Counted from the first letter of the stretch, positions 1 through 64,000 are shown. The stretch: 64,000 bases of DNA from Raillietiella orientalis (GCA_036172245.1 JAYWIR010000126.1:1-64000); one strand, 5' to 3'. Notes: generated from the sequence alone by a model not told the origin. Program-made: numbers and translations.

Positions 1-2864
1 GTGCTCCTGGCGGGACACTCCAGAGTGGTCCGCAGTGTGCAGCGGGCGTTGGGGCCGAATCGCAGGCGGTTCCAGTCCAGGGAAGTCTGGAGGTTCAGCT
101 TGGCCCACGTCGCAACGGATTCCAGCAGCCAGGCGGAGAAGTTGGCGGGGCTGCATACCGTCCAGCCCTTGTCTCTCACCAGGGCTTCCATGCGCCCACG
201 GAGAAGGCCGCATCTTCTGACCTTCCTTCTAGAGCACAGAAGGTACGACGCTGGTCCTTGCGTCCTGGACACACGGCTGGCGAGGATTCGGGCCGGAAGG
301 CACCAAGGGGTGCTCCATGACTTTGCTGCGATGGCGAGGGTGCGCCATCGCAGCTGTATGTCCAGGCGCTCCAGCGTCAGGAGGCCGAGACCGCCGTCCC
401 GAGGAGGAGCGCATAAGTCATCTAGAGGCACACGTGGCCTCCCGCTGCCCCAGAGGGCGATGCGGTGTAGGTCCTTGGTCCTCTTTTTAACATCACGGGG
501 AACGGGGCACACAAAAAGCAGGGGGCGGAGGATGGGAGCCGCGAAGGCGTTCCACACGGCGGCCCGTTCCGGCAGAAGGAACTTGCCTTCCAGGAACGGG
601 CCCATTGCCAACTCTACCTTCTGGAGACGAACTGACCAGGCTTCTGCGAGGCAGAAGTCCCCCAACGGGACACCCAGGTACTTCAGGTACCTGGCCGTGG
701 AGATCCCCAAGCGGATCCAGTCAGGCCGTCCGACCCATGTCGCACCCACCGGTACGACCGACGACTTCGCCTTGTTTACCCGCAGTCCAGTCCCACGACT
801 TAGCACGTCGAAGAAATCCTCCACTGCGGCTGCCGGTGCGGACATGGGCAACATGAGCAGAAGATCGTCGGCGTATGCTGCAACGGCAAGCGTGCCGGGG
901 CACGAGCTGGGCAGGGCAGCCAAAGTCACCCTGTACGCTCTCAGCACCAACTCAAAGTAGGTGCTGAAGAGCAGGGGACTGAGGCTATCGGCCTGCCGTA
1001 TGCCTCGCCGCATTGGCACGCCGTACACCTGTTGGCTGGAAAAGACGATGTTCACAATGGCATTGCGCCAGCATGAGCGCAGGTAGGAGAGAAGGGAGGG
1101 TGGGAAGCCCATGCGACCCAGGAGCTTCAACAGTAGCTCCTGGTCTACGCAGTCGAACGCCTTGTGGAGATCGACCGCGATCGCTAGGGCTCCCTTCCCA
1201 GCCCGGGTATCCATTCCCAGCCCAGCTGGCGGTCCCAAAGTGGGGTTGCCAATCTTTTTCCCCTGTGTCGTTCAGGCAGCGCTGCAAATGGAACCATGTG
1301 CACGCGAAGAACAGGTTGGCATCCATACTTCGCCCGGGAACAGCGTACGTCTGCTCCGGGCTAATTATGGAGTCTGCCACCTGTCCTAGACGCGAAGTGC
1401 ACAGTCCAGCGATCAGCTTGGCGTCCGTATTAACGATTGTGATCGGACCACAATTGCACAAGGATCTCAGGTCTCCTCCCTTCGAGAGAAGTCTCACACG
1501 GGCTGACCGAAACGAGGCGGGAACGTCGCCTTCGTCTCGGATCAGCCCGGTCAACTGAAGCACCAGGGGGGCCAGCTCTGTCGCGAAGCATTGAAAAAAT
1601 TCCGCAGGCAGGCCGTTCTCCCCTGGCGCCTTACGCCTCTTGAGCCTTTTAATACCGGCGAGAATTTCACCGGTAGAAAAAGGCTCGTCGAGGCTGATCT
1701 TCTCCTCCTCCCCTATTGCCGGGGCTTATCCGGGAGCAGGAGCCGCGAGGCGTTCCGCTCTGGGGGTGCCCTAGCGTAGAGGGAGGAGTAGTCACGTCGC
1801 ACGAGGTGCCTGATCGCGGGTATGGCGGATCGTTCCCGGCCCTAGTCGTCCAGCAAGCTGGCCCACCCGGATTGCCAGGCTTGGCGTTCGGCTCTGGCTC
1901 GATATTCCGCGAGGCGACGGACATTCGGGGTCCTCTCGTACCGGCGGGCCTGTAGATAAGCGCGATCGTTCCGAGCCCCCTCCTTGAATCTAAGGGGCAG
2001 GCGGTGCAGGGGAAACTCCTCGCAGAACTCGCGGACCGAGGCCTTGAAGAGGTCCCAGTCTTGGAGACTGCGGAGGGTGACGCCTCTCAGGAATTCGCGA
2101 AGGAGTTCTTTCGCACCTGATAGCCGCGTCCAGTCCCCAGGCAGCCGCCACGCCATGAACGGGGGTCCTTTGTCGCGCGGGGAAATTTCGGCGATGATCC
2201 TGGATTGGTCCGACAGCGTCGACGCAACTTTTCCCCGTTTGCCGACCCGTGAGCACAGGTCGACATCCAGGAAGAAGTGGTCGATGCTGCGGTCCATTCC
2301 CTGCGCGTCTGCCAACAAGTTGCGCGTGCGCATGGCAGCGCACAACTCGTTGGCCGTGCGTTCTTGTGCTTCGGGCTCACCTGACAGCAGACGGAGATTA
2401 AAGTCCCCAGCTATCAGGTGTGCCTTCCGCACGTTCGTATCGGCCATCCAGTCGCGCTTCAGGGTTTCCAGCAGCCTAGTACGGTCGCTGTATCCCCCTT
2501 TTCCGCTCGGGGCGTACACGTTCGTTACGATCAATTCGATCGAGTCGCACCAGCTGAGAATCAGCTGACCGACCCGTCCGTCGTCATCAAAGCGTACGCC
2601 CTTCACGCCAGCGTCGATGGCCGGCTTAAAGAAGAACGCGACCCCGCAGGTGTTGCGGGCGCCGCATCGCCAATACAGTCGACCCCCCGCGATCGCCTCG
2701 ATCTCCTGGACGTCTGCCTAGGTGATCACGTGGATCTCCTGCAGCAGGGCCAGGTCGAAGTCACGCAGGGTGTCGGCCGTATCTCGTCTGTTGCCGTCGT
2801 CGCGCAGCCCGTTGACGTTCCAACTGGCCACGCGGATTCGACTACGACAGGCGAGCCCAGGTGT
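1..2864 (-). pseudogene. ORF2 (APE-RT) of copy A, disrupted
   Basis: Fragments 1842-2606 (APE) and 985-1563 (RT N-part); YADD near 865-876; stops and frameshifts. Confidence 0.9.
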
Positions 2865-4615
2865 TATTCCTGGGAAATCTGCTGTACGGCGTCCGCCACC
2901 TGTTGGGGCGGGACGCTAGGTGGAAGAGGAGGGACAGGTGCCTCTAGCACCTGGTCACCCTCTTCCATCGGTGACGGCGCGTCGGGCGGTTCACCCTCAG
3001 GTGGGGTCGCGCCTACCTGCTGGCCCTCCTCCATAGTGGTTGGATCCTCAGGGTCCGCGACGGCAGGATGGATTTCGCCCCTCTGCTCACCCTCCTCCAT
3101 GGGGGTGTCCTGCTCGACGGCTTCCGCGCGTGGGAGCTCCCCCTCTGGGATTCCCACGCTGCCGGCGACTTCCTGCTTCTCCTCCTCGCTCGTGGAGGAA
3201 AGGCGCTTCCTCGGCTTTTGGGACTTGCGTCCCGTCTTCCGGGGGGGTGCCTCCGAGGAGGAGGATGCACTTCCGGCCCCCAGGTCGCAATCACCTGCGG
3301 GGGCCTGCTTCGGCGGAGCCGGCCTTCGCACGGCCTTGCGCGAGGGGTTCTCACGCTCAGCCTGCGTGGCCGCGAGCTCCTCCGCCGCCTTCGCGAAGGC
3401 GGCGTCCTGTCCGGCGGCGAGCGCGTCGCGCGTCTCACCCTCTGTGCAAACAGAGGGTTCGCCGTCGCGACCCTCAGGCGCGGCGGAAACGGCAAGGGGA
3501 GGCTCGTCGCCCCGGGTGGCAGCCTCGGGAACGCTGATGCGCTCCAGTGCTACCGAGCACTCGCGGAGAGTTTCAGATCGCGGACCAGGTCTTTTCGCCT
3601 TCGAGACCGACTTTTTCTCCGCCTTCTCTTGTGAACCCTTTTTAGGTTCTTTTCTGGCCTTTACCAGCGTCCATGTTTCTTCCTCGCCCGCGTCTTTCGC
3701 GGTTTTTTCCGCCGTCGCCTGGGTTGGAGGAGGAGGAGAAGGCTGCTGGGGCCGGCCATTCGCGCGATGAGGTCTTTCGACCTTATTCACCTTTTTCGCC
3801 GGTGCCTTTTTGGCAGCAGGTGGCACCGGGGTGGGGCGTTTAGGGCACACACGACGGACGTGTCCGTTTTCTCCGCACAAGTGGTACTCGATATTCGGGC
3901 ACCGCCTGCGCACATGCCCTACTGCATCGCAGTAGCCACAATAGCGGGGTTTCCCTACGTACCAGAGTTCGACGGGCTGCTTCCCGACCTTCAGTTTGCG
4001 GGGTAACCCAGCACCCTCGTTCACAGTGACACGCGCTGCTGCCTGCCCACCAAAGAGGCTGTTATAGCCGTCAAAAATGGTTGGCTTTGGACACAGCGCG
4101 TGCACATCTCCGTATTTCTTCAATTCCGCGTTCACCGAAGAGCGCGTCATGCGGTTCGTGATCCCCGTTAGATGGACCATTACGGAGCGGTCCATGCTAA
4201 CGGGTAGGATCTTTCGGCCAGCCACATTCAGCGGGGTGTTGATGAGGCGCTGCGCTAGGGCTACGTCTTTGCAGACGACCTCCACGCGTTGCCCCCCGCT
4301 GAGTACGGCGAGGCCGTCAAGATCCTCCTCACGCACTGGGAATTCCTGTAGTGCCTTGCTAAAGGCACGCGCGGTGCGACCGTCGAACAGGTTTCCTACC
4401 TTATAAACCAAGGATGGTTTATATCCGGAGTCCCTGTAGGCCGATTGCTCAGCCAAGGTTTCCGCGCTCGGCGCGGCGACCATGGCGCTCCAGCTCCTCG
4501 TCTTGGGCGACGAGGGCGATTCCCTGGCGGGTGCCCCTGATCCTGTAGGTCGTGGGGGAGGGCTAGTATCCCTCACGCCTACCTCCATCGTGGTGTCCTC
4601 TGGCAGCGATGTCAT
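2864..4615 (-). CDS. ORF1 gag-like protein (583 aa) of copy A
   Basis: Uninterrupted ORF starting MTSLPED; knuckle CGYCDAVGHVRRRC plus a second knuckle with C>Y; basic then acidic low-complexity C-terminus; same length as ORF1 of J1. Confidence 0.9.
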   Translation of the reverse strand: MTSLPEDTTMEVGVRDTSPPPRPTGSGAPARESPSSPKTRSWSAMVAAPSAETLAEQSAYRDSGYKPSLVYKVGNLFDGRTARAFSKALQEFPVREEDLDGLAVLSGGQRVEVVCKDVALAQRLINTPLNVAGRKILPVSMDRSVMVHLTGITNRMTRSSVNAELKKYGDVHALCPKPTIFDGYNSLFGGQAAARVTVNEGAGLPRKLKVGKQPVELWYVGKPRYCGYCDAVGHVRRRCPNIEYHLCGENGHVRRVCPKRPTPVPPAAKKAPAKKVNKVERPHRANGRPQQPSPPPPTQATAEKTAKDAGEEETWTLVKARKEPKKGSQEKAEKKSVSKAKRPGPRSETLRECSVALERISVPEAATRGDEPPLAVSAAPEGRDGEPSVCTEGETRDALAAGQDAAFAKAAEELAATQAERENPSRKAVRRPAPPKQAPAGDCDLGAGSASSSSEAPPRKTGRKSQKPRKRLSSTSEEEKQEVAGSVGIPEGELPRAEAVEQDTPMEEGEQRGEIHPAVADPEDPTTMEEGQQVGATPPEGEPPDAPSPMEEGDQVLEAPVPPLPPSVPPQQVADAVQQISQE

Positions 4616-4708
4616 CGGACACCAACGATGTGAAAAAGCACACACTGAACCAAAAAACCGCTTTCCGCTGCTCGTTCGCGGAGCGCCGGAAAAACACGTC
4701 CGCTCTCG

Positions 4709-6982
4709 AGGAGAGGGATTTGGGGAGGGGCCGCGTAACGAAAGGCGCTATCTTCAGGCCCGACGTTACGCGCGAACCCCCGACATGCGCAGGTTAGCAG
4801 AGTATCGAGCGGGAGCCGAGAGGCAAGCCTGGCAATCCGGGTCGGCTAGCTTGCTGGACGACCAGGGCCGGGAGCACTCGGCTCCTGCTCAGAAGCGCGG
4901 CATTGTGAAGAAATTGTACTCCTCCTTGTACGACAGGGCGCCTTCGGAGCAAGACGTTTCACGACTTCTGCTTCCGGAAGGTCCTCCAGCGATCGGGGAG
5001 GAGGAGAAAAGAAGCCTCGACGAGCCTTTCACGATGGACGAGATCCTCTCGGCCATCGGAAAGCTCAAGAGGCGGAAGGCTACAGGGGAGGACGGCCTGC
5101 CCGCGGAGTTTTAGCAAACTTTCGCGGCTGAGCTTACCCCCCTGGTACAGCAACTCACCTTGCTGATTCCTGAGACAGGTGAGGTTCCCACCTCGTTTCG
5201 TTCAGCAAAGGTGAGCCTCCTCCCGAAGGAAGGATACCTAAGGAGCATGAACAACTGGCGTCCCATCACAACAGTGAATGCGGACGCCAAGTTAATAGCC
5301 AAGATGTGTGCAGAGCGTCTGGGACGGGTTACCAACATCTTCATCAGCCCGGATCAGACTTATGCTGTTCCCGGGCTAAGCATGGAGGCCAACCTGCTCC
5401 ACGCTTCCACATGGTTAGAGCTCCAACAAGGAAGGGGCTTATTGAGCAGCCGGAATTTCGGTGCGTCCGTTGGCGGGAGACGGAACGGTCGGGTGGGGAA
5501 GGAAGCCCTTGCGGTCGCTGTCCACTTGCGTAAAGCATTCGACAGCGTCGACCAAAATCTCCTTTTAAAGCTTCTGGAACGCTTGGGCTTCCCGGCCTCT
5601 TTGTTGGCCTACCTGCGCTCCAGCTGGCGCGACGCGCTCATTAATGTTCTTTTCAGCGGGCAAACCGTGCACGGAATACCGGTGCGACGCGGCATACGGA
5701 AGGGAGACAGCCTCAGCCCCCTGCTCTTTAGCGCCTGTTTCGAATTGGTGCTGAGAGCGTACAGAGAGACTCTGGCGCACCTGCCGTGCGATTGTCCCGG
5801 TACGCCTGCGGTTTCGGCGTACGCGGACGATCTTCTGCTGCTCATGCCTATGTCCACCCCGGCCTCGGCGGTCGAGGACTTCTTCGACTTGCTGAGACGG
5901 GGAACAGGACTGACGGTGAACAGGGCGAAGTCGTCCGTAATGCCAGTCGGAGCGGCGTGGGCAGGGCAGCAGGACTGGGTCCGTTTGGAAATCCCCACAG
6001 TGAGGTACTACAAGTACCTTGGTGTGCCGTTGGGGGACTACTCCCCTGCGAAAGGGTGGTCCCGCTGCCTTCAGAAGGCTCAGGCGGCGAGCGGTTCGTT
6101 GCAGGACGGCAGGTTCTACCTGCAGGAACGGGCCGCGGCGTGGAACGCGTTTGCGGCTAAACTCCTTCGTCCCTTGCTTTTTGTTTGCCCCCCCTGAGTG
6201 GAGTCAAAGAAGAGGACGAAGGTCCTCCTGAGGATCGCCCTTTGGGGCAGAGGGAGGCCCCGAGTCCATCTTTCGGGCTTGTGGGCGCCTCGTCGGGATG
6301 GTGGTCTGGGCCTCCTGACGTTTGAGCGGCTGGAGCTACAGCTCCAGTTCCGAGTTGTTGCCTTTATGGCAGAAAATTGGTGCACCCCTTGGTGCCTCCC
6401 GGCACGTCTACTCGTTGCGCTGGCCACCGGCAATGCGGGACTCTCGTCCTACTTTGCACTCCGAAGCCCCATCTGCCACTGCGGACTTCAACTTCGGAGG
6501 GCGGCCAAGCTCGTAAAGAACAACTCGGCGCGGATCCTCGTACGCCCCACGAACGGTCCTGCCTGGTTGCTGGAAACCGTCCGCACGTGGGCGATGATTC
6601 AGGAGCAGAGCCCGCAACACGAGCGAATAGCTCTGTTCGCGCCGCATGCCCACCGCACGCTCCGAGAAATTATCGAGAATCTTCGAAGGAGAGCGTGGGC
6701 ACAAAGAACCTCCCTTGCTGCGGTACTGCCTACCCTACGGGAACATCTAGGCAGCGACGTCGCGGCACAATGGGAGGTTACTTTCAAGATCGCCAGCAGG
6801 GCAAAGAAGATCGGGGATTGGAGAACGGGTCAGCTCACCAACGCTGCGACCCCGAGGACCACCCCAAATGGACTGTTGCGCCGGGGAGAGCTACTGGATG
6901 TTCAAGAGGAACATCTCGAGTGGCCCCCGGTGCTCATGAACTCGCGCACCCTGCCCATGAAGTGGCAACAGTCGGCACTTCT
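4709..6982 (+). mobile_element. LINE copy B, ORF2 linker-RT segment (host of A and C)
   Basis: Begins at the GFGEG linker; ORF 5160-6197 has RKAFD, GIRKGDSLSP and AYADD; breaks at WQQSAL. Confidence 0.93.
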
Positions 6983-7176
6983 TTTGCACCGGGGTGCGCC
7001 GGGGCATTTATTTCTTTAATAAAAAAAATAAACAAGCAAGTGTAGGGCTATCGCCCCTACAGTGTTCAGAACATGTTCTTCTGAACTCGCCGAGTGGGCA
7101 GTAGGCAGGCTCCCAAGGTCGACTCGGCAGCGGAGGGGGAACGGACAAATAGAAAAAAGAAAAAAGAAAACACTAT

Positions 7177-10100
7177 TTACAAAAGCAGGGAGGGGTTGGG
7201 GAGGGGATCACGTTCCGCTGGAGACGTCCTCTCCATCCTTTGCAGGATGCCGGCAAGTTCAAACTGCATGTGTCCCAGATGGGTCCATCTGGCTGCCGTC
7301 CTCAGGAAGCAAAGGGCGTAGCACAAGATGTCCCTATCGTTCGGTCCACCAGTGGCGGTGCTCCAATCGGCTACAATCCCTCGTAGGCAGCAGAGGGCTG
7401 CAAGGGCTGCGGCAGGCGAAAGGGCGTCGCGCACGAAGAGGCGCTTTAAAACGTCTCTGAGAGCGTGCAAGGGTGCACCAACGGCTGTTGCAAAGCGCAA
7501 CCACAGGGGCCGGAGGGCAACACAGTCAACGAGCAGGTGCGGGAGAGTTTCTCGTTCCCCGCACCTAACACAGTTTGGGTCCACAACCCCCCTTGTCCAA
7601 TGAGAGCGGCGGGCGTTGCTGGGGAGACCCCAGTTTAACAACAGGAACGCCGACTCCTGCCACTTTAGGGGGAGGGCCCGAGTATTCCTCAGCACTGGGG
7701 GCCACTCGAGTTCATCCCGCGGGATGCACAGCATCTCGCCCCAGCGCAACAGTCCTCTCGGTGGGGAACTTGGGATCGCGGCATCAGCAAGCTGACCCGT
7801 GGTCCAACCACCTTGTTCTTTCTCAGTGTCCCTGATCGTACACCGGTCCTCCCACATGGCCGGCTGGCTACTGCCCAGATGTTCCTTGAGGTGGAACAGA
7901 GCTGTGGCAAGGGAGGTCCTCTCAGCCCACGCACTCAAGGCGGGCTGCACGATGATGTCCTGCAGCGAGCGGCTCTTATGATAGGAGTGCAGCATTCGAT
8001 GCCGCAACTCCGGGCTCGCTTCCTCGATCTGGGCCCACGTGCGAAGGCTTTCCTGCAACCAGGAAGTGCCGTTCGCGGGCCGGCAGGAGATCCAGGTGTT
8101 CTTCCTGGTCAGCTTCGCCACTCGCCGAAGAGCCAGTTCGCAGTGGAACAGGTACCGGCGTTTGCGGCGCGCTAGGAAGGTAGACAGTCCCGCGCAGCCT
8201 CCGACTCGCTGAACCAGGCATCGTGCAGGCTCGCAGCAGCTGGCGCTCCACAACTTCGCCACTAGGGCGATTGTTCGGAACTGCAGCTGCAGTTCGAGGC
8301 GCTCCAGCGTGAGGAGGCCAAGGCCCACATCGCGACGAGGGGCGCACAAGTCCTTCCAACGCGCGCGGGGCCTTCCTCTGCGCCAGATGGCCATTCTGAG
8401 GAGGTCCTTTGTACGTGTTCTCACACCACGGGGTGGGGGCAAACAAAAAGCAAGGAGCGAAACAGGGGGGCCACGAAAGTGTTCCACAGCACGGCCCGTT
8501 CCGGCAAGAAGAAGTTGCCATCCAGGAACGGGCCGATCGCTCTCTCGGACTTTTGGAGGCAGCAAGACCATTGTTTCTCTGGAGAGTAGTCCCCGAACGG
8601 CACACCGAGGTACTTAAGGTACCGTACCGTAGGGATCCCCAAGCGAGACCAGTCTAGCTGCCCTGCCCACGAGGAACCGACTGCAACAACGGACGACTTT
8701 GCTCTGTTCACCTCCAGTCCTGTCCCGCGATGCAGCAGCTCGGAAAAGTTTTCGACCGCCGACGCCGGGGTGGACATGGGGAGCAGCAGCAGAAGATCGT
8801 CCGCATACGCCGCCAAGGCCGGTGTACCTGGGCACACGCGCGGCAGGCGACCAATAGTCTCCCTGAATGCCCTCAGCACCAACTCGAAGTAGGTGCTGAA
8901 GAGCAAGGGGCTCTAGCTATCACCCTGCCGTATCCCGCGGCGCACCGGCACACCGAAAACGTTCCTACCCCTGAAAGAAATGTTGGTCAGCGCGTCGCGC
9001 CAGCAAGAGCGCAGAAAGGCCAATAAGGAGGCCGGGAAGCCCAAGCGCTCCAGAAGCTCCAGCAGGAGCTCCTGGTCGACACTGTCGAATGCTTTCCGCA
9101 AATCGACAGCGACCGCGAGGGCCCCTTCTCTCTCCCGACTATCCCGCGAACCACCAGCGGACGTCCTGCAAATCATGCTGCCGACCTTGTTCCCTCCATT
9201 CATTCTGGTTCTTTGAAGTTCGAACCAGGTGTTCGCGAAGAGCAGGTTGGCGTCCATGCTTCGCCCGGGAACAGCGTAGGTCTGCTCCGGGCTGATGAAG
9301 CTTTCCGCCACCCGCCCCATTCGCTTCGACCATAGCTTCGCAACCAGCTTGGCGTCCGCGTTCAGTACGGTAATCGGACGCCAATTGCTGAGGTTCCGTA
9401 AGTCTCCTCCTTTCGGTAGGAGACGCATACGTGCCGAGCGGAAGGAGGCGGGAACGTCTCCTGTCTCCCGGATCAGCAGCGTTAGCCGCTGCACCAGGGG
9501 AGCCAGCTCCGCCTCGAAGCACTGAAAAAACTCCGCGGGCAGGCCGTCTTCCCCTGGTGACTTCCGCCTTTTGAGCTTCCCTATTGCGGTGATGATTTCA
9601 CCCATCGTGAAAGGCTCGTCCAGGCGTACTCTCTCTTCTTCCCCGATCGCCGGGGCACCGTCCGGAAGCAAAAATTGGAAAAATTCCCGGTCTGGAGGCA
9701 CCCTGGTGTACAGGGAAGAATAATAGTCGTGCACTAGGCTACTCACCTCTGCCGGGGCCGAGTGCTCTTGGCCTTCGTCGTCCAGCAGGCTGGGCGACCC
9801 CGATTGCCAGGCCTGCCGCTCGGCCCCGGCTTTAAATTCCGCCAGTCTTCGGACGTCTGGTGTTCGGGAGTAACTACGGGCCTGCAGGTAAGCCCTATCG
9901 TTCCGAACACCTTCTCCAAATCCTTTCGGGAGACGGTCCATGGGGAACTGTTGGCAGAACTCTCGCACCGAGACTTTCAAATCGTCCCAGTCGTCGAGCG
10001 TCTGCAGGCTGAAACCTCGCAAGAACGCGCGGAGGTGTTCCGCTGCGCCTGGCTTGGTCAGCCAGTCCCCCGGTAGACGCCACGCCTGCGCGGGAGGCCC

Positions 10101-10796
10101 CCTGTCGCGCGGGCGAATGACGAGTTCCACGCGGGAGTGGTCGGAGACTGCGGACTGTATCTTACCTCGCCTGCCCACGCGACAGCGCAAGTGATCGTCG
10201 AGGAAGACGTGGTCCACGCTCCGTTCCATCCCGGTATCCCCGGATAACAAGTTGGATGCGTGCACCGCAGCGCACATCTCGTTAACCGGGGTGGCCTCTG
10301 TCCTCGCCGCACCTGACAGCAGGCGAATATTAAAATCGCCGGCTATCAGGTGCGCCGTGCGCGCGCCTGCCTTCGACAGCCAGTCGCGCTTGAACGCACG
10401 GAAAAACGCCGTCCGTGCCACGCGCGCGTGACCGCCGCTCGGCGCGTACACGTTCGTGACGACGAGATTGATGGAGTCGGACCACCTGAAGGTGATTTGC
10501 CCGACCCGACCTGCCTCATCGAAACGAACTTTCCGCACCGCGCGTTGTAAGGCAGGCTTCAGAAGGAAAGCGACCCCGCGCGTACGGCGGTGGCCGCATC
10601 GCCACATAAGCTGACCACCTGCTATCCGTTCGATCTCCCGCGCATGTTCTGCGGAAATCTCATGGATCTCCTGCAGCAGCACGAGGTCGAAGGCTTGCAA
10701 GGTGGCAGCTATGTCTCGTCTCCTGCCGTCATTGCAAAGCCCGTTGACGTTCCAGCTGGCGATGCGTATTTGACGGCAGGTGGCGAGTCCCGGCAT
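7177..10796 (-). pseudogene. ORF2 of copy C (APE-RT-ZnF), one stop plus frameshift
   Basis: 8913-10796 begins MPGLATCRQIRIASWNVNG; 8421-8906 has YADD; 7177-8571 has CVRCGERETLPHLLVDC. Confidence 0.92.
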
Positions 10797-12397: not shown

Positions 12398-12468
12398 CCC
12401 CCGACCACTGATGCACCGCACTACACCAATAAAGTCGAGCGAGTCAGGAGCGCAGAACACGTCTGACC

Positions 12469-45231: not shown

Positions 45232-45243
45232 GCGGCCAGTTGG

Positions 45244-50676: not shown

Positions 50677-50754
50677 TCCCTTCCCTGCCCTCCAACTTCT
50701 TTTTGTCTGTTTATGTTTTTTATTTTTCTTTTTGTTTTATCCCTATCCCCCTTC

Positions 50755-50895
50755 GCTGCTGAGGAACGCTACGCTGGGCTGCGTCCCGGCGTCCCGGCAG
50801 GTCCAGTGCATATGGCCGTGAGCGGGGCATTGTACCGCGGATGTAGAGTTGTTTTTTTTTTAAAAATAAACGCCCCGGGCGTACCCGGTTGTAAA
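50755..50895 (+). terminator. Structured 3' UTR with AATAAA and terminal hairpin (representative copy)
   Basis: AATAAA 50865-50870 followed by CCGGG-CGTA-CCCGG and TGTAAA; equivalent motifs at all 3' ends. Confidence 0.75.
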
Positions 50896-50900
50896 CCTCC

Positions 50901-53415: not shown

Positions 53416-55260
53416 CCTCCAAGGCTGGCAAAAAGGCAGTGAGGCGTCCAGCCTCCACCGAGGAGTCGGTAACTTCCGACCCCGAAGCGCAGGCCGGAAA
53501 CCAAGTTTCCATTTCCGCGGCACCAAGCCGGAAGGCTGGAGGAAAGTGCAGCAAACCTCGGAAAGCCCCTGTCGAGGTAGAAGGCGTGGAGTTCACTTCC
53601 AACTGCGAGGGTGCCATTAGCGTGGGAGAATCCCGGGAATCGTCACCCAAGAGACCACCGCGCACAGACACGGAGGAGATGGAGGGGGTTAAAGCCGGAA
53701 AGGTACCCAAGGTGTCTGAGGAGGCTGAAACCCTAATGGTCATCTCACCCGCCTCGGAAGGGGCGGGTTCCCCCACACCGTCATTTTCCCGGCAGTAATG
53801 CCGGGAATCTCCTCCCGCCGTCGTCTCCGCATCGCCGTTTGGAACATGAACGGCATGACAGACGCCGGCAGGCGACGAGACATGGCCGCCATTGTAGGAT
53901 CGTTCGACCTTGTGCTGCTGCAGAAGATCCATGTGATGTCTGCAGAACAAGCGCAGCAGATCGAACGCATCTAAGGAGGGCGGCTGTGGTATCGGTGTGG
54001 AACATCGAGAAGTTGTGGTGTCGCCTACCTGGTTCGGCCCACCATCGAGGCCGCCGCCCGTGGAGTGCGGTTCGACGATCACGGTCGTGTCGGTCAGCTG
54101 TCTCTCAGCTGGTCCGACTCGATCGACGTGATCGTTACGAACGTTTACGCCCCGAGCGGAGCGGACCTGACGAACAGGAGGGCCAGGAAAGTATTTTTCC
54201 TTGCCCTCCATCGCGACTGGTTGAACGAGGCAGGCGTGCGGAATTCCTATCTGGTTGCAGGCGATTTTAACGTTCGTCTGAAACCGCATGGGCTGAATCA
54301 CGAGCGTGACCTGGTCAGCGAGGTGTGCGCGGCGGTGCACACTTGTAATTTGTTGGCAAGTGTACCAGGGATGGACGACAACATCGATCACGTGTTCCTT
54401 GACGAGCACCTGTGCACTCGTGTGGGCAGGCGCTGCAAGTTGCCGTGCGAGTTGTCCGACCATCGACCAATCTTGATTTAAATCCATCCGTGCGACAGGG
54501 GCACCCCCTTGTCAGCGTGACGTTTGCTAGGGGACTGGCTAGAGCTCCCGGACGCGACGGAACATCTCCGCACGTTGATACGGAGCTTTAGGATGCAGAC
54601 ACTTCAGGATTGGGACCGCTTTAAACGTTCGGTCCAGGAGTTCTGCGACCAGTTCCCTCTACACCGACTACCTACGGGTTTTGGGACCGGGGTCCGTAAC
54701 GAACGAGCCTACCTGCAGGCCCGTCGTTACGCCAGGACCCCCGACATCCGCAGGCTAGCGGAATACAAAGCGGGAGCCGAAAGGCAAGAGTGGCAGTCAG
54801 GATCGGCCAGCTTGCTGGGCGATCAGGGCCAGGAGCATTCTGCACCCGCTCAGATCCGCGGTCTGCTGCGGCGTTTTTACTCCTCCCTGTACGCAAGAAC
54901 GCCTCCCGAGCGGGATTTCTCACCAATCCTGCTTCCGGAAGGCGCTCCTGCGATTGGGGAAGAGAAGAAAAAGTCCCTCGACGAGTCGTTCACGATGGGC
55001 GAGATCATCTCGGCCATCGGAAAGCTCAAGAGGCGAAAGGCTCCAGGGGAGAACGGCCTGTCCGCGGAGTTTTGTCAAACTTTCGCGGCTGAGCTAACCC
55101 CCCTGGTACATCAACTCATCTTGCTGATACGCGAAAAAGGTAACGTTCCTGCCTCGTTTCGTTCGGCAAATTGTGCGGCTTCTCCCTAAGGGAGGAGATC
55201 TGAGGAGCATTAACAACTGGCGTCCCATCACAATAGTGCATGCGGATTACAAGTTGATAG
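53416..55260 (+). mobile_element. LINE copy I' continued (ORF1 end, APE, linker, RT start)
   Basis: ORF1 resumes SKAGKKAVRRPA; TAATG at 53796-53800; breaks at ADYKLI. Confidence 0.92.
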
Positions 55261-57994
55261 TTGCCACCCGGTCACGCCGGGGCGTTTATTAAAAATTCTC
55301 TTTGATTCGTGGTACGAGGCCCCACTACGGCCAACTCAACTGGACCTGCCGGGTCGCCGTTACGCAGACCGGCGCGACTCTCCTCGGCAGCGGAAGGGGG
55401 GGGGAAAAAACAAAAAGAAAAATAGAACATAAAAACAAAAAGATTTGGGAGGGTTGGGGAGGGAACACTGACCACTGGGAGGAGGTTCCATCCTTCGCAG
55501 GATGCCCTCGAGGTCCGTCCGTATAATTTCCAGGTGGGGCCATCTGGTCACAATCCGTAGGTAGCGGACTGCAAGTACGACGGCATCCCTGTCGTGATTC
55601 GGTCTTCCGACGTTGCTCCAGAACGTCACAATCCCGCGTACGCAGCAAAGTGCAGCCAGGGCCGCGGCTGGACGCAGGGCATCATCACGAACAGAAGCCG
55701 AAAAACGTCTCTAAGCTGGCTGCTTTCCTGGATCCGTAGGGAGGCACGAAGACGTTCCCACAGGGGTCGGATGGCAGCACAATCAACAAGGAGGTGGAGG
55801 AGAGTTTCCCGTTCCGCACACCTGATGCAGGTAGGATCTACTTGACCCCTGGTCCAGTGGTAAAGGCGTGCGTTGCAGACCCCAATGCAACAACAGAAGC
55901 GCCGACTCCTGCCACTTCAGAAGGAGGATCCTAGATCCAATTAATACCGGGGGCCACTTCAGGTCATCCGGCTGGATGCCGAGTTGCTCGCCCCATCTCT
56001 GCAGTCCTCTCGGCTGGACACTAGGGGTACTGGCTTGCGCCAGTTTACCCGTGGACCAGCCGCTGATCAGCTTCTCCTTGCCTGCGATGCGGCAGGAAAC
56101 TTGCCACCTAGGCTTGCGGCTGCTGGAGAGCGCCCTCCTCAGGAAGGGCATCGCCGTGGCTAGGGGGGTTGTCTCTGCCCACGTGCTCCTCGCGGGACAC
56201 TGGAGTATCTTCCGCAGAGTGCAGCAGGAACAGGCGCCGCGTCGCAGGCAGTTCCATATCTATTCATTTTTTTCATTATTCTTCGCTTACGTGCCAGCTG
56301 TCTCCTCCAGCCATGCGGAGGAGTTGGCGTAGCTGCATACCATCCAGCCGTTTTCCTTAGCCAGAGTTGCCAGGCGTCCCAGGAGAAGTCCGCATCTCTT
56401 GAACTTCCTGCCACGGCACAGAAGATAGGACGCGAGACCCTCCGTTCCGGATACACTGCTGGCAACGAGTCGGGCCGAAACGCACCAAGAAGTGCTCTAT
56501 AACTTCACTGCGATGGCGAGGGTTCGCCACCACAGCTGAATCTCTACTCGCTCCATCGTCAAGAGGCCGAGACCGCCATCCCGACGTGGAGCACACAAGT
56601 CCTTCAACGGGACTCGGGGCCTCCCACTTTCCCAAAGGGGAATTCTCAGGAGGTCCCTTGTCCGTTTTTTCAACTCTCTGGTGACGGGGCAAACAAAAAG
56701 CAGGGGGCGGAGGATAGGAGCCGCGAACGCGTTCCATACCGTGGCCCGTTCCGGAAGGAGAAACTTGTCTTCCAAGAACGGGCCGATCGCCGTTTCCACT
56801 TTTTGGAGGCAGCCAGACCACGCTTCCGCAGGGGAGTAGTCCCCCAACGGCACAACAAGGTACTTGAATTACCTCACCGTGGGGATCCCTAAACGGACCC
56901 AGTCCGGCTGCCCTGCCCACGCCGCACCAATTGGCATCACGGAGGACTTCGCCCTGTTCACCGTAAGCCCGGTTCCTCGATTCAGCAGGTCGAAGAACTT
57001 CTCGACCGCCGAAGCCGGGGTGGACATAGGGAGCAGTAGCAGGAGGTCGTCCGCATATGCTGAAACCGCAGGCGTTCCGGCGCATTCATGCGGCAGGTGC
57101 GCCAGAGTTTCCCTGTACGCTTTCAGTACCAACTCAAAGTAGGTACTGAAGAGCAACAGGCTCAGGCTGTTTCCTTGCCGGATCCCACGTCGCACTGGCA
57201 CGCCGTGAACAGTATGCCTGTTGAAAGTAACATTGATTTGCGCATCGCGCCAGCTAGAGCGCAGATAGGCTAATAAAGAGGCCGGGAAGCCCAAGCGTTC
57301 CAAAAGCTCCAGAAGGAGATTCTGGTCGACGCTGTCGAATGCTTCACGCAAGTCAACAGCTAACGCAAGTGCTCCCTCCCCCATCCGACCAGCCGTCGCA
57401 TGACTGACGGACTCACTGGAATTCTTGGTGCGCATCAATCCCCTTTCGTATTGGAGCTCTAGCCAGGTGGAAGCGTGGAACAGGTTCGCCTCCATGGTTC
57501 GTCAGGGAACAGCGTATGTCTTTTCCGGACTGACCACGGATTCCGCTACCCGTCCCGGGGGCTCAGTTCTCAGTTTAGCGAGCAACTTTGCGTCCGCATT
57601 CACTACAGTGATGGGACGCCAGTTGCCAACGTGTCGCAAGTCTCCTCCCTTAGGAAGGAGACGTACTCTAGCTGACCGGAACGAGTTGGGGACATCCCCA
57701 CGTTCACGGATCAGCATACATAGTTTTAGCACCAGGGGGGCCAGCTCTGCCGCGAAGTGTTGGTATAATTCAGCTTGCTGGCCGTCTTCCCCTGGTGCTT
57801 CGTTTCTTCTCAATTTATTGATGGCGGAAATTATCTCCTTCATCGTGAACTCTTGGAGGAACATGTGTATTTCTTCCTCCCTCAACGCGGAAGCACCCTC
57901 TGGCAGCAGGCGCTGCGCAAAGGAGCGCTCTGATGGTCTCAGCGCGTAAAGGGAGGAATAGAAATCCCTCAGAATGCGGCAAACCTGCGACGGT
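55261..57994 (-). mobile_element. Copy H', inverted duplicate of H
   Basis: ORF translations identical to H; coordinates sum to 85365. Confidence 0.94.
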
Positions 57995-60595
57995 GCCGCA
58001 CGCGTTTTTGGTCAGCTCCCGTGAGGGAAGCCAAAACTAGGTGTTGTGTGAATTGGAAGTGCGGACGTTGGAAGGCAGAAATACCTGAAGATGCCAAAGT
58101 TCCTGCGACGGGAGACGTAAGGCCCACGTCCCCCCAACCTATGGAGGTGGGGTCATGCCCCACCAGAAAATCAGCCCCCGCCACCCCGGCGAGGGCGTGG
58201 AACAAGGTGACCGCGGCTGCTCCGCCGGACGTGACCGCCGAAGTGCAGGCCTACATAAAGGAGGGCTACAACCCTGCCATCCTTTACAAGGTAGGAAACC
58301 TATATTCTCCGCTTACAACGCGGAAATTTGGAAACGCCATCCGTAGGATGGGAATCTCTGACGAGGAGATACTTTGCTTCTCGATTCGGAGCAACGGCCA
58401 GTTCACGGAGCTGATCTGCAGAGATGCAGCGCTCACACACAAACTGCTCTGCACGCCCGTTCCGTTCGAAGGGCGGAATCTCCTCCCACACACGGTGGAT
58501 CACTCTATGGTGATCCACCTCACGGGTACAACGGTGCGGATGACCAATGAAGCCATCCGCACTGAAATCAACAAATTCGCGGAGATATACGCGATGTGGT
58601 CAAAGCCCAACGCCTTTACTTATCGAGGCGCATTCAGTAGGCGAGTGGCTGCACGCATAACTCTCCGCGAAAATGAAGAACTTCCCCACAAGCTTGAAGT
58701 CAACGACGAGCTCGTCGACCTTTGGTACGTGGAGAAGGAAAAATACTGTGGGCTGTGCAACACATTCGGGCATCTTAAAAAGAGATGCCCGGATGCTAGA
58801 TGCCCATCTTGCGGCGCGAAGGGCCACCCTAGTGCTGTGTGCCCGAAAACCACCGCGACAACGCCTTCTGCCCCTTCGACAAACGAGGGGAAGAAGGCAG
58901 AATTTAAAGCAAAGAGCGATGGAAAGCCGACTTCAGAAGAAGTCGTGCACAAGGAGCAGGAGCCTCAAAAGGAGACTTCTGATCCAAATGCCGACGAGGA
59001 AGGCTGGAAAATAGTCTCCGGCGAAAAACCCAAACAAATTGAAAACTAAACAAAAAAAATTACCACAAAAAACTCAAAAAATCAGAACGCGAGCGTTCCG
59101 AAAAAACCCGCGGACGGCAAACCAAAAATTCCGCAGCGCGAGTGCATAAAGGAATGCCGCGTTACAATCGAGCGCGTTCCGTCGATCGAGCGTCGATCGG
59201 CGAACGCGACTCCCGCAACCGTCGCGAACGCCGCAGAACCGCCGCAGGAATCCTGCGACAAACACGCGAGCAGCAGCGACGAGAAAAACTTCGCGAAAGT
59301 GGCAGGGGAACTCGCAACCACCTTAATACGGCCGCCTAAGGCTGCAAAGAAGGCCGTCAGACGTCCGGCGGAAGTTAAGGGCCCGGAAACTTCGGGGTCC
59401 GAGGCGGAAGCCAGAAACGCTCTTACCGTCGCTCTTCCGAAGTGGAAGGCGGTCCGGAAGTCGCGCAACCCTATGGGCGTCGCTCTTCCTCAGGCTGAGG
59501 AGGAGGAGATGCGCTCGGATAGCGAGAAGGCGATGTCCGCGAGGTCGCGGGATCCCTCCATCGACAGCATCCGGTCGGTCCTTCCTATCGACCTCAGTCC
59601 GGCTGCAGACGTTCCGGTCGTTGCCGAAACGCCGCCACCGCAGATGGACAACGACCAGCCGCCTCCCGAACAGGAGGCGGCAATACACACGCCACCACCA
59701 TCACTAGTATGATGCGAGGAATCGCCTCTTACCTGGAGCTGCGTATAGCCTGTTGGAATGTCAATGGGCTGCGTAGCGAAAGCAAGAGGCGTAGCGTGGC
59801 CGACACCCTGCGACCTTTCGACCTGGCACTTCTTGAAGAGGTGCATGCCCTCAGAGCAGAGGACGTCCAGGAAATCGAGAGGCTCACAGGGGGGAGGCTA
59901 CTTTGGCGTGGTGGAGGAGACCATTCCCGCGGAGTGGCCTTTCTGCTGAAGACGGCCGTCGCCAATGCGGTGCGCAGTGCACAGTTCGACGAGGAAGGTC
60001 GAGTAGGACAACTTGTCCTTAAGTGTTCCGAATCGATCGACCTCGTAGTCACGAACCTGTACGTGCCCTGCACCAGCCACAGTCGCGCAGAACGCACTGC
60101 GTTCTTCGAAGCCCTGCGGCGAGACTGGCTGGCCGGAGCAGGCGTGCGGCGGGCGCATCTGATAGCGGGAGACTTCAACGTTTGCCTGCTGTCGGAAGCG
60201 CCCGACATACAAGCACAATTGGGCAACGAGTTATGTGCGGCTATGAACACACGCAACTTGTTGGCCGATGAAGCCGGAGCGAGAAGCAGAATCGACCACG
60301 TGTTCCTCGATAACCACTTGTGTACGCGGGTGGGGACTCAAGGAGCAAATGCGTCGGAGCTGTCCGATCACCCTAGACTAGTGATCAAGATTCACCCGCG
60401 CGACAGAGGTCCACCCTCCGAAGCGTGGCGCCTGCCGGGGGACTGGTTGCGACTCGCTGGAGCGCGCGAACATCTGCGCGCATTTCTGCGTAGTTGCGAA
60501 CTGCAGACTCTCGCTGACTGGGACAAAATAAAACGCTCACTCCAAGAGTTCTGTGACCAGTTTCCCCTCCATCAACTTCCTCCAGGTTTGGGCGA
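57995..60595 (+). mobile_element. Copy G', inverted duplicate of G
   Basis: 58021-59049 identical in translation to 26316-27344; APE from 59709; ATGATG junction. Confidence 0.94.
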
Positions 60596-63544
60596 TGCCA
60601 CCCGGATACGCCGGGACGTTTATTAAAAACATTTCAACGGTCAATACAGTACGTGGTACAAGGCTCTACTGACGGCCACGCAATACCGGAACTGCCGGGA
60701 CACCGGGACGCAGCCCGGTGTGGCTCTCCTCGGCTGTGCAGGGGGATGAGGGATTAAACAAAAATAAATTTAAAGAGAAAAACAAACCACAAAAAAGAGT
60801 TTGGAGGGCCGGGATGGGATCACAGAAGTCTGCTGGGAGCGCCCATCCTTTGCAGGATGCCTTCTAGTTCCATTTTCAGTTTTCCCAGATTGGGCCATCG
60901 GGTAGCTCTCTGCAGGAAGCGAGAAGCATACTCGATGACGTCCCTCACGATGCAGTCTTCATCTTCGGCATCACTCCAGGCCGCCACGATACCACGAATG
61001 CAGCAAAGTGCTGCCAGGGCTGCGGCTGGACTGAGGGCGTCCCGCACGAAGACAGGACTGAAGACACATCCAACATTGCCACCATCCGGTATCCGGAGGG
61101 CCGTTTTCAGACGATCCCAAAGAATCCAGACGGCAAGGCATTCAACTACGAGGTGAGGGAGCGACTCCCGCTCCCCACACCTTGCACACGCAGGATTTAC
61201 TCTTCCCCGCGTCCAGTGGAAACGGCTCGCGCTGCAGGGTAGACCCCAAAGGTGCCACAGAAGCGCCGATTCTTGCCACTTCAGAAGAAGAATCCTGGAT
61301 CCAAGTAGGAACGGGCGCCACTTCAGGTCATCCAATCGAATGCCGAGCAGCTCGCCCCATCTTCTTAATCCGCGCGGCTGGAGACTAGGGGTCGTTGCAT
61401 CTGTCAACTCTTTCATGGTCCAGCCGCTCATCATCTTCTCTGTGCCTGCGATACGGCAGCAGACTTGCCACCTTGACTTCCGGCTTTCGTGAAGCGCCCT
61501 TTGGAGGGAGGGCATCGCCGTAACAAGGGGTGTGCCTTCCGCCCACGTGCAACTCGGTGGAAATTGAAGAATTTCACGGAGAGTGCGGTGGGCGTAAAAG
61601 CCGACACGCAGGCAGTTCATCCGGTCTTCGCACATCTGGTTCTGCTTGGCCCATGTGCCAGCAGTCTCTTCCAGCAAAGCGGAGGAGTCGGCGGGGCAGC
61701 AAACCATCCAGCTGTTCTCCTTGGCCAATGTTGCCATGCGCCCGAGCTGTAGGCCGCATCTTCGAATCTTCCGGCCAGAACACAGAAGAAACGATGCGAG
61801 TCCTTCGCAGCGGGACACACGCCTGTCCAGGAGGCGGGCCTGAATGCAGCAAGCGGTGCTCCACATCTTCGCTGCGATGGCGAGGGTTTGCCATCGCAGA
61901 TGGATTTCCACGGGCTCCAGCGTCAGGATGCTGAGACCGCCGTCCCGACGCGGAGCGCACAAGTCCTTCAAAAGGAATCGGGGCCTCCCCTTGCCCCAAA
62001 GAGGTATGCGAAGGAGGTCCTTCGTCCGCTTTTTTGCTTCCACGGGGTCGAGGCAAACAAAAAGCAAGGGGCGGAGGATGGAGGCCGCGAAGGCGTTCCA
62101 AACCGCGGCCCGTTCCGGCAAGTGAAACTTTCCTTCCAGGAACGGGCCGATCGCCGTCTCGACTTTTTGGAGGCAGCTGGAACACGCTTCCGCAGGGGAG
62201 AAGTCCCCCAACGGCACACCGAGGTACTTGATGCACCTCACCGTGGGGATCCCTAGACGGACCCAGTCCTGCTGCCCTGCGCACGTCGCTCCAGCTGGCA
62301 ACACTGTCGACTTCGCCCTGTTAACATGTAATCCGGCCCCACGGCTAAGCAGGTCGAAGAAATCTCCGACTGCCTCAGCCGGGGTGGACATAGGTAAGAG
62401 GAGCAGAAGATCGTCGGCATACGCCGCTACAGCTGGCGTGCCGAAGCACGAGCTCGGCAAGGGGGCCAAAGTCTCCATGTACGCTCTCAGCACCAACTCA
62501 GCGTAGGTGCTAAAAAGCAGGGGGCTGAGGCTGTCGCCCTGCCTTATGCCCCGCCGCACCGGCACGCCATACACCTTTTGTCCACTGAAATCAATCGAGA
62601 TTATCGCGTTTCGGCAGCAAGAGCGCAGGTAGGTAATCAAGGAGGGTGGAAAGCCCATGCGACCCAGGAGCTCCAAGAGGAGTTCCTGATCAACACAGTC
62701 GAATGCCTTATGCAGGTCGACTGAGATCGCTAAGGCCCCTTTTCCCGCATGAGCGTCCCCACCCTGTCCTACTGGCGGCCCTAAAGTAGGGTTGCAAATT
62801 TTTCCTTTCCCTTCTTTCTTACTCCGCTGCGCGTGCATCCGTGTGCTCGCGAAGAAGAGGTTGTCGTCCATACTTCACCCTGGAACAGCGTAAGTCTGTT
62901 TCGGGCTAATTATGGAATTGGACACCTGCCCTAATCGCGACGCCCACAGCCCGGCAATGAACTTGGCGTCCGTGTTTACAATCGTGTTGGGACGCCAGCT
63001 ACAATGTTTCCTGAGGTCTCCTCCCTTCGCGAGGAGCCTCACCCTGGCTGACCGAAACGAGGCGGGAACATCGCCTTCGTCTCGAATTCGCCTTGTCAAC
63101 TCGAGCACCAGGGGGGACAGTTATTCCGCAAAACTCTGAAAGAACTCCGCGAACAAGCCGTCCTCCCCTGGCGCCTTACGCCTCTTGAGCATTTTGATAC
63201 CGGCGAGAATTTCACCGGTCGTGAAAGGCTCATCGAGGTTTTCTATCTCCTCCTCCCCTATCGCCAAGGAACCGCTCATGAGCAATCGCCGCGAGGCGTT
63301 TTGTTCGAGTGGTGTTTTGGCGTGAAGGGAAGAATAAAAACACCGCACGAGATTCCGTACCGCAGACGGAGACGAACGTTCCCGGCCCAGGTCATCCGGC
63401 ATGCTGGCTGACCCGGATTGCCAGGCTTGTCGCTTGGCTCCGGCGCGGTATTCGGCCAGGCGACGGACATTGGGGTTCCTCTCTTGACGACGCGCGTGCA
63501 AATACGCGCGTTCGTTGCGAGCCCCTTTGCTGAATTCCCGCTGT
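60596..63544 (-). mobile_element. Copy F', inverted duplicate of F
   Basis: Same junctions as F; several percent diverged. Confidence 0.94.
60820..62871 (-). CDS. Uninterrupted 683-aa RT plus C-terminal zinc-finger portion of ORF2 (N-terminally truncated)
   Basis: HKAFD, GIRQGDSLSP, AYADD, KYLG, CARCGERESLPHLVVEC; lacks the stop that F has at 23952. Confidence 0.75.
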   Translation of the reverse strand: MDDNLFFASTRMHAQRSKKEGKGKICNPTLGPPVGQGGDAHAGKGALAISVDLHKAFDCVDQELLLELLGRMGFPPSLITYLRSCCRNAIISIDFSGQKVYGVPVRRGIRQGDSLSPLLFSTYAELVLRAYMETLAPLPSSCFGTPAVAAYADDLLLLLPMSTPAEAVGDFFDLLSRGAGLHVNRAKSTVLPAGATCAGQQDWVRLGIPTVRCIKYLGVPLGDFSPAEACSSCLQKVETAIGPFLEGKFHLPERAAVWNAFAASILRPLLFVCLDPVEAKKRTKDLLRIPLWGKGRPRFLLKDLCAPRRDGGLSILTLEPVEIHLRWQTLAIAAKMWSTACCIQARLLDRRVSRCEGLASFLLCSGRKIRRCGLQLGRMATLAKENSWMVCCPADSSALLEETAGTWAKQNQMCEDRMNCLRVGFYAHRTLREILQFPPSCTWAEGTPLVTAMPSLQRALHESRKSRWQVCCRIAGTEKMMSGWTMKELTDATTPSLQPRGLRRWGELLGIRLDDLKWRPFLLGSRILLLKWQESALLWHLWGLPCSASRFHWTRGRVNPACARCGERESLPHLVVECLAVWILWDRLKTALRIPDGGNVGCVFSPVFVRDALSPAAALAALCCIRGIVAAWSDAEDEDCIVRDVIEYASRFLQRATRWPNLGKLKMELEGILQRMGAPSRLL

Positions 63545-64000
63545 GGAGAGCGGACGTGCTTTTCCTGCGCTACGCTTGCGTGGCAAAGCGGGTGGTTTTT
63601 CTTTCTTGAGTGATTTGGGCGTGCCCATCGTCGGTGTCCGATGGCAGCGTTGCCAGAGGACACCGCGATGAAAGTAAGCGTGATGGAGGCTTGTTCGTCC
63701 ATACAGCCTACTGGATCAGGGGCATCCGCCCCGGAATCGTCCCCGGCGACACCGAGGTCATGGAGCGCCATGGTGGCCGTGCCTAGCGTGGAAGCCATGG
63801 CCGAGATGGAAGCCTACAAGTAAGCGGGGTATAAACCCTCGCAAGTTTACAAGGTAGGCAACCTTTTCGATGGGCAAACTGAACGCGCCTTTACGAAGGC
63901 GCTGCAGAACGCCAATATTTTCGAAAAAGATCTCGACGGCCTCTGCGTACTCAGCGGCGGGCAGCGGGTCGAGGTGGTATGCAAGGATATCACCTTGGCC
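63545..64000 (+). mobile_element. Copy D', inverted duplicate of the 5' end of D; runs off the right edge
   Basis: GGAGAGCGGACGTG; MAALPEDTAMK at 63641. Confidence 0.93.

Follow-up and report, generated by a model that had tools for sequence, protein, structure and literature searches.

How does a block of the genome come to consist of one kind of transposon inserted into itself, and what picks the point at which each copy enters the last? The question is raised by a 64,000-nucleotide stretch of Raillietiella orientalis DNA (GCA_036172245.1, JAYWIR010000126.1:1-64000; the whole stretch is called the window below), which is made up of L1-like long interspersed element (LINE) sequence from at least 10 subfamilies, with no non-LINE sequence seen. 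An initial annotation had described the window as a Russian-doll chain of LINEs, each lying antisense near the midpoint of the previous one, and had proposed a self-targeting, centre-seeking, orientation-flipping integration system in which position or chromatin, not sequence, chooses the site. We consider it probable, though well short of certain, that this LINE-only block was built up as members of one diversified L1-like family entered one another, time after time, by target-primed insertion, at points chosen by site and not by position. Judged from this one window, the locus appears to be a self-targeting LINE cluster of the Zepp-like kind, with both the insertion point and the orientation fixed by specific sites.

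All pieces were mapped by blastn and tblastn onto a single ruler, the element J1 in the frame first assigned to it (45227-50891, 5665 bp); J1 coordinates are used for positions within elements, and the element letters are those of the table. J1 contains two open reading frames (ORFs), ORF1 at 67-1854 (595 aa) and ORF2 at 1974-5345 (764 + 348 aa), with the apurinic/apyrimidinic endonuclease-like (APE) domain of ORF2 at ~2040-2514 and the reverse transcriptase (RT) domain at ~3528-4053. Pfam searches found Exo_endo_phos and RVT_1 together in three of the 12 ORFs tested (J1 ORF2, E, and C) and RVT_1 alone in two more, with J1 ORF2 scoring 26.1 bits for PF03372 and 78.8 bits for PF00078, in the order APE then RT. 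In the L1 clade, ORF1 lies upstream and often carries a CCHC knuckle, and ORF2 has a zinc-binding domain at its C terminus; here zinc-finger hits stayed below the Pfam cut-offs, at 16.6 bits for zf-CCHC in ORF1 of A (cut-off 20.8) and 22.3 and 17.7 bits for zf-RVT in C and J1, respectively (cut-off 27.5). Because Exo_endo_phos and RVT_1 domains occur in long ORFs, the predicted proteins mark the elements as L1-like retrotransposons of the type lacking long terminal repeats. The coexisting subfamilies have element lengths of 5.5-5.9 kb, and self-comparison of the window revealed that all of its parts are mutually related, at 64-99% identity.

The termini of the elements are conserved. A 5' terminal motif, GAGAGCGGACGTGTTTTT and its variants, is common to all nine visible 5' ends (A carries GAGAGCGGACGTG), and the only truncated 5' end is that of fragment S. 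All 11 of the 3' ends shown carry AATAAA, a hairpin of the CCCGG-loop-CCGGG type, and then a tail of 4-9 nt that varies by subfamily (TGGCA, TTTCA, TGTAAA, TGATAA, or TGAAAAA); poly(A) or an A-run is absent from all 11. A poly(A) or simple-repeat 3' tail is common, although not universal, among L1-clade elements, and the 3' end here is of the stringent type. Given these shared motifs, whether an end is intact becomes an objective call. Exactly 8 extra nt lie between the host and the 5' core at 4708-4715 (A), 21820-21827 (D), and 43796-43803 (M), and those of D resemble the 5' extension of J1 and J2; the true 5' ends may therefore vary and extend 8-10 nt further.

All seven junctions of the initial annotation exist, each no more than 10 bp from where it had been placed, and each time an intact terminus meets the interior of an opposite-strand copy. 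A 5' terminus faces an opposite-strand 3' part at A|B (4707/4716, the end of the A core and the start of B), D|F (21819/21828), G|H (27371/27372), and L|M (43795/43804), and a 3' terminus faces an opposite-strand 5' part at B|D (13128/13129), F|G (24769/24770), and H|I (30104/30105). The range given for the host breaks, 2.65-3.55 kb or 47-63% of the element, was likewise reproduced, with breaks at J1 2657, 2727, 2728, 2737, ~2880, ~3310, and 3553-3555. Six further junctions between a terminus and a host interior were found; of 14 junctions in all, only 53118/9 does not coincide exactly with a conserved element terminus.

Nested insertion is the best reading of this arrangement. Within the window, E sits in D, and likewise E' in K, with an exact 8-bp target-site duplication (TSD), ATTGAAAT, on both sides, and C sits between the two pieces of B, which share an overlap of 6-14 bp, GTCGGC.... 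K matches D at 94-96% identity, with E at the identical site, and is continuous through 2657, where the 3' end of B cuts D; D was therefore once contiguous there. The alternating half-elements would then be one side of a nest, (L >) I > H > G > F > D > B > A (host before insert), with at least six levels and probably a seventh, and we infer that the unseen complementary halves of this long chain exist to the left of the window. The self-targeting part of the original proposal is thus supported by the nests in the window, the TSDs, the termini, and K, and the long chain is a step beyond them. Its outermost step, first drawn as K > I, is antisense only if M represents the 5' portion of an I-type element, which is plausible but unproven. 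A sequencing run, X1, was used for a few junction contigs only (247 short contigs, 26% of words; 142 contigs only 90-95% alike). Its 11 listed joints were read as four true junctions, four switches between homologous positions of paralogous copies, and three small skips, and its contigs carry junctions of the B|D and D|F types.

The seven host breaks had been said to share no nucleotide consensus. Three of the junctions, A|B, D|F, and F|G, nevertheless fall on one 11-bp site, S1, a stretch of ORF2 at J1 2727-2737 in the linker between APE and RT, at 48% of the element length. In an alignment with six intact copies, B starts GGA TTT GGG and F starts GCA TTC AGC at the identical codon (J1 2727/2728), and G ends GGT TTG GGC GA at J1 2737, 11 nt further on, with the 3' terminus of F directly next to it. 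Two 5' junctions and one 3' junction with an 11-bp stagger, made by three inserts (A, D, and F) in three hosts (B, F, and G, respectively) and all antisense, therefore converge on S1. The events are independent because third codon positions have diverged in excess of second positions between B and F (42% versus 19%) and between A and D (44% versus 20%), whereas true DNA duplicates are flat across codon positions (7.5/6.0/8.7% for J1 versus K and 5.5/3.7/5.6% for E versus E'); the excess marks lineages that diverged while active. This pattern, with only ~60-65% identity beside the junction, rules out A|B and D|F as duplicates of one ancestral junction. A same-orientation triple within 12 bp is expected with P = 8e-4 (200,000 simulations of 12 random events), and the same triple together with the further close same-orientation pairs with P ~1e-5 by simulation; the window was chosen for its pattern, so all P values given here are post hoc. 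Independent copies are thus found at the same nucleotide position and in the same orientation of a repeated target, as in a site-specific LINE.

Two further sites are reused. At S3, in ORF1 near J1 1365, M ends ...CCC TCC G before the 5' end of J1, and I begins (G)CC TCC AAG after the 3' end of K, at ORF1 codons equal to those at the end of M. CCTCCA follows the 3' ends of J1, the J2 remnant, and K, and separates J1 from J2. J-family copies appear to enter S3 in sense orientation with a 6-bp TSD, CCTCCA, that regenerates the target and permits tandem copies. At S4 (J1 3553-3566), M entered L at 3553-3555 and S entered E' at 3558-3566, and one X1 contig joins an M-like 5' end to an opposite-strand J-like host at J1 3555, a weak match with a shorter side of 33 letters.

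Strict alternation of orientation holds along one lineage only, since the window also contains four sense and two more antisense insertions. Of the sense insertions, E entered D/K at 2313-2321 and L entered K at 2067, and the other two, J1 and J2/K, entered I/M at ~1365; the additional antisense inserts are S, in E' at 3558-3566, and C, in B at ~5005. With no event counted twice, the tally is nine antisense and four sense (n = 13; one-sided binomial 0.13, by hand), or 8/12 antisense before S was included (0.19); the three further junctions seen in X1 contigs are all antisense. Orientation-flipping is therefore not a general rule in this window, and centre-seeking reduces to the position of the main site: the nest looks antisense and centre-seeking because the site entered most often, which would be nicked on the host sense strand, is 48% of the way along the element. 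The two orientations separate by host position, the four sense events all mapping below J1 2320 and the nine antisense ones all above 2650 (P = 0.003 when events are counted, 0.024 when sites are). A strict rule linking position to orientation is opposed by two X1 contigs, with only 22-23 letters on the shorter side, that hint at antisense insertions around 1180 and 2010.

In target-primed reverse transcription, a nick on the host sense strand forces an antisense insert. At S1, the host sense strand would be nicked after ...GGCGA and the second nick would fall 11 nt upstream; with the host sense strand as primer, each S1 insert would be antisense, and with the site at 48% of the element the nest would grow from what looks like its centre. 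J-family copies would use the ORF1 site in sense orientation with the TSD CCTCCA, and the third site, J1 3553-3566, is also reused. Later, an inverted duplication of at least 10.9 kb arose, with its break within inverted J copies, followed, it appears, by gene conversion between the arms. We infer that the endonuclease reads the sites, and likewise which strand is nicked first. A wider proposal, which we put forward tentatively and rate as less likely than not, is that the at least 10 coexisting LINE lineages carry endonucleases that recognise a few short sites in the family's own coding sequence, such that each copy would be a fresh landing pad, the nest would grow from the inside like a Russian doll, and the nicked strand would set the orientation. 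In a bolder version, the nick would fall on the displaced sense strand of transcribed, and hence young, copies; if so, a single cause would account for why antisense inserts are in excess, why the newest copy is preferred, and why insertion is confined to LINE sequence.

Several observations weigh against insertion at specific sites, or against the nest itself. The complementary halves and TSDs of the long chain fall outside the window, so that its nesting is reconstructed from one side, and both arms of the inverted duplication hold identical, not complementary, halves. ORF decay does not rise with depth (disruptions per kb are ~0.4 in G, ~2.5 in A, and ~3.2 in D, small counts and noisy), and the X1 evidence consists of single short contigs at 90-95% likeness. 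S1 was used by three of the nine antisense events, others being B in D at 2657, G in H at ~2880, H in I at ~3310, and C in B at ~5005, and six of 13 events lie outside S1, S3, and S4. Should M belong to I' as its 5' part, S3 itself may represent a single physical site entered twice, or a tandem duplication. The occupied S1 copies (B GGATTTGGGGA, F GCATTCAGCAA, and G GGTTTGGGCGA) differ at 4-5 of 11 positions and have no clear common motif, and S1 is unoccupied in at least six copies (J1, K, A, C, E, and I); recognition would therefore be loose, or dependent on some further feature. No such feature emerged from cross-subfamily conservation, the sites lying at the 25th-97th percentile and S1 at the 42nd, a spread that gives no sign of homology-guided site choice. 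Neither a hairpin at S1 (z from -0.35 to +0.89 in seven copies) nor peaks of GC or AT skew at the sites were found. Short motifs do occur 7-10 nt upstream of some nicks, CTCCGGA at S1 of J1 and the site of B in D, and CAGTCGG at the sites of C in B and E in D; as a target signal, CTCCGGA and GTCGG are only suggestive.

The account given first for this locus, in which sequence has no role and every insertion is guided antisense to near the midpoint, either by location within the host element or by chromatin such as centromeric nucleosomes carried by the newest copy, draws support from several observations: the occupied S1 copies lack a clear common motif, the seven host breaks cluster at 47-63% of the element, and at least seven of 12 events falling in a 900-bp span has P = 0.029. 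The nest is also deeper than random attachment predicts (7-8 levels among 14 elements against a mean of 4.3, P = 0.018-0.002), as a preference for the newest copy would lead one to expect, and in Chlamydomonas CENH3 is centred on a single new ZeppL copy, according to a preprint (10.1101/2025.03.28.645958). Depth, however, would also follow from decay of the site in old copies or from one-time occupancy of sites, which are not separable here from a preference for young transcribed or CENH3-bound copies. What makes control by position or chromatin unlikely is the scale of the agreement: three independent events that match to the nucleotide with an 11-bp stagger are not expected of nucleosomes. 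Sense insertions at J1 ~1365 (twice), 2067, and 2317 and an antisense one at ~5005 do not fit either, and with S3 and S4 also reused, the original exclusion of sequence no longer stands.

It is a different matter whether the pieces were ever nested at all. Chimeric copies made during reverse transcription, by twin priming or by serial template switching between RNAs and cDNAs, would have no complementary halves, and none is found in the 64 kb, where the same halves appear twice. Every segment also ends at a natural template end, and D (2657 to 1, minus) with F (2728 to end, plus), or G (2737 to 1) with H (2880 to end), has the familiar outline of a 5'-inverted L1. Such an origin is nonetheless very unlikely. 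D matches K at 94-96%, and K runs unbroken through 2657 and has a J-type 3' half only 78% like F, so D and F are not products of a single RNA; A and B share ~2 kb of overlap, at 71.5% identity; adjacent pieces come from lineages whose divergence took place under selection; and D bears the nested E with its TSD. The differing subfamilies, the overlaps, and K as the contiguous twin of D rule out twin priming or any single-RNA origin for D+F, G+H, and A+B. Rearrangement of a LINE array at the DNA level (inversions, fold-back or break-induced replication, or unequal exchange), or misassembly, in place of retrotransposition, we rate as the least likely origin, even though duplications of both kinds, an inverted one of at least 10.9 kb and a direct one of 6.5 kb, do exist here and ZeppL arrays in Chlamydomonas are reported to undergo satellite-like expansion and contraction (PMC9977147). 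The non-terminal join at 53118/9, with 1-2 bp of microhomology, is what rearrangement would leave; the 13 other junctions lie exactly on conserved termini, which is unlike random breakage, and TSDs exist. The 129 substitutions and one indel between the arms are unlike fold-back read errors, and two of the junctions are reproduced in X1 contigs.

Duplication of DNA appears to have been superimposed on nested insertion. The inverted duplication (98.8% identity), which mirrors part of the chain and was not in the initial annotation, has arms that are identical over a centre of ~4 kb (~25.4-29.4 kb) and 1-3% diverged at the edges, suggesting gene conversion between them. Their transition to transversion ratio is near 1 (60:69), and the arms are a real duplication and do not have the profile of an assembly error. 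At 53118/9, the sole junction away from an element terminus, J2 breaks off at J1 2222 and is followed by the final 300 bp of a K-like copy (J1 5363); the inverted duplication has its inner end at this same position. Because that break falls within J-family copies facing opposite ways, inverted homologous LINEs (K and J2) probably mediated the duplication. J2 as the arm-2 copy of K was ruled out, K2 and J2 being only ~90% alike over 155 bp. In the direct duplication, likewise absent from the initial annotation, D+E (13129-19636) matches K+E' (34953-41650) at 94% with the same 8-bp TSD, and the outer flanks differ, each with proper termini (the 5' junction of D in F, the 3' junction of K in I); an 11.5-kb composite of a J-family element and E may have retrotransposed in one piece, or E may have passed from one copy to the other by gene conversion.

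The remaining features of the window concern its sequence composition and its relatives. GC content is 53-63% across the 64 kb, Rfam gave no matches in the window, and Tandem Repeats Finder reported a single array (57 bp x 3.1) within ORF1 of D. The closest database relative, an unnamed protein, has 70% identity and the remaining relatives ~25%. A protein-guided metagenome scan kept 80 loci, all at 22-33% identity, of which none was used, and a metagenome scan for the 3' motif gave no matches. D/K-type copies are 93% identical to J1 over J1 2314-5665, yet 75-85% over 83-2321, suggesting that the subfamilies are mosaics formed by recombination between lineages. ATG-initiated ORFs of 407 aa run antisense to I (30878-32101, +) and I' (53264-54487, -) and are probably a by-product of the high GC content.

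Table. Elements and duplications in the window, in J1-equivalent coordinates where positions within elements are given.
Feature	Position	Strand	Description
A	1-4707	-	J1-equivalent 4706 to 1; cut by left window edge; intact 5' terminus at 4707; 78.8% to J1 by blastn, single high-scoring segment pair
Filler after A	4708-4715		8 nt
B piece 1	4716-6984	+	J1 2727 to ~5010; starts at S1
C	6985-12468	-	Full length; antisense within B; GTCGGC... on either side, TSD 6-14 bp
B piece 2	12469-13128	+	~J1 4995 to 3' terminus; ends with AATAAA, CCCGG..CCGGG hairpin, TTTCA(A)
D piece 1 (J family)	13129-13471	-	J1 2657 to 2313; broken at 2657 by 3' end of B; 93% to J1
E	13472-19378	-	Full length; sense insertion in D; TSD ATTGAAAT at 13464-13471 and 19379-19386
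D piece 2	19379-21827	-	J1 2321 to 1; core of intact 5' terminus ends at 21819
F	21828-24769	+	J1 2728 to 3' terminus; starts at S1
G	24770-27371	-	J1 2737 to 1; broken at S1 by 3' end of F; S1 copy TCGCCCAAACC at 24770-24780
H	27372-30104	+	~J1 2880 to 3' terminus
I	30105-31949	-	~J1 3310 to ~1365; right edge is S3, TGGAGG (reverse complement of CCTCCA) at 31944-31949
K piece 1 (J family)	31950-35295	-	3' terminus to J1 2313; unbroken across S1 and 2657; 92.9% to J1
E'	35296-41392	-	Duplicate of E at identical site in K; identical TSD at 35288-35295 and 41393-41400
S	37484-37675	+	192-bp LINE 3'-terminal fragment; antisense in E' at J1-equivalent 3558-3566; not in E
K piece 2	41393-41646	-	J1 2321 to 2067; broken at 2067 by 3' end of L (sense insertion)
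L	41647-43795	-	3' terminus to J1 3553-3555
M	43796-45232	+	Intact 5' terminus, core from 43804; reaches ORF1 codon-equivalent ~J1 1365; ends ...CCCTCCG
J1	45233-50895	+	Full length; sense insertion at S3; CCTCCA copy next to it at 50896-50901
J2	50902-53118	+	J1 1 to 2222; tandem behind J1; ends at non-terminal DNA-level break
Inverted duplication, arm 1	21365-32248		
Inverted duplication, arm 2	53118-64000		Reverse complement of arm 1; K' 3' end, I', H', G', F', 5' start of D'; runs past window edge
3' ends	13098-13128, 24739-24769, 30074-30104, 50863-50895, 31950-31985, 6985-7015, 13472-13500, 41647-41680, 37640-37675		

LINE-built, centromere-like clusters are known in green algae. If the reading favoured here is true, nucleotide-precise reuse of sites within the elements' own ORFs would offer a concrete mechanism by which such elements find each other, a sequence-reading endonuclease with targets that are filled once, which would account for self-confinement, recursive growth, and the orientation patterns and would supply defined target oligonucleotides; if the pattern is peculiar to this window, the locus would be an ordinary nested LINE cluster. 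Nested self-insertion and centromeric clusters of Zepp and ZeppL are already in print (PMC8226300, PMC3446292, PMC9940879, 10.1101/2025.03.28.645958). The group is recognised on a tree of APE and RT (Craig 2021), and its clusters occur singly on each chromosome, at the CENH3-bound centromere. Zepp of Chlorella and Coccomyxa and ZeppL-1_cRei of Chlamydomonas are L1 LINEs that insert into their own copies and form nested clusters with little else between (PMC8226300, PMC3446292), and by these described features the elements of the window are alike, being L1-type, inserting into existing copies, and forming a nested cluster. They differ in several respects. Zepp arrays consist mostly of 5'-truncated 3' ends (PMC8226300, citing Higashiyama 1997), whereas all nine visible 5' ends here are intact and only S is truncated; an (A)n tail, which the window elements lack, is given for both Zepp and L1-1_CR (PMC3747384 Table 3); and Chlamydomonas reinhardtii has one 8.3-kb family (PMC9940879; 10.1101/2025.03.28.645958), in contrast to the minimum of 10 subfamilies here, with elements of 5.5-5.9 kb. 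Fixed target sites inside elements and an orientation rule went unmentioned in the parts of the Zepp/ZeppL literature covered, with the primary Zepp papers (Higashiyama 1997, Yamamoto 2003, and Noutoshi 1998) outside that scope, and the novelty of intra-element site reuse and of an orientation rule is accordingly provisional.

The cluster has parallels outside the Zepp elements. In twin-primed L1 copies, an inverted 5' segment that reaches the 5' end of the RNA abuts a direct 3' segment; the adjacent pieces in the window differ from these in coming from different subfamilies, in overlapping by up to 2 kb, and in D having a contiguous twin in K. LINEs of the Tx1 group, in the L1 clade, likewise have an APE-type endonuclease and enter a repeated target always at one position and in one orientation ('target-specific insertion', PMC3747384). 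The target in the window differs in lying within the family's own coding sequence, at several sites and with seemingly loose specificity. Tx1L, for its part, targets another transposon, and R2 uses a restriction-like endonuclease. The R1 and R2 elements of ribosomal DNA share site-specific target-primed insertion in which the nicked strand fixes orientation (R2 mechanism, PMC3747384), and each of their targets can be filled only once, so that fresh targets matter. They belong to other clades, and their target is a host gene and not the element itself, so that no recursive nest of the kind seen here can form.

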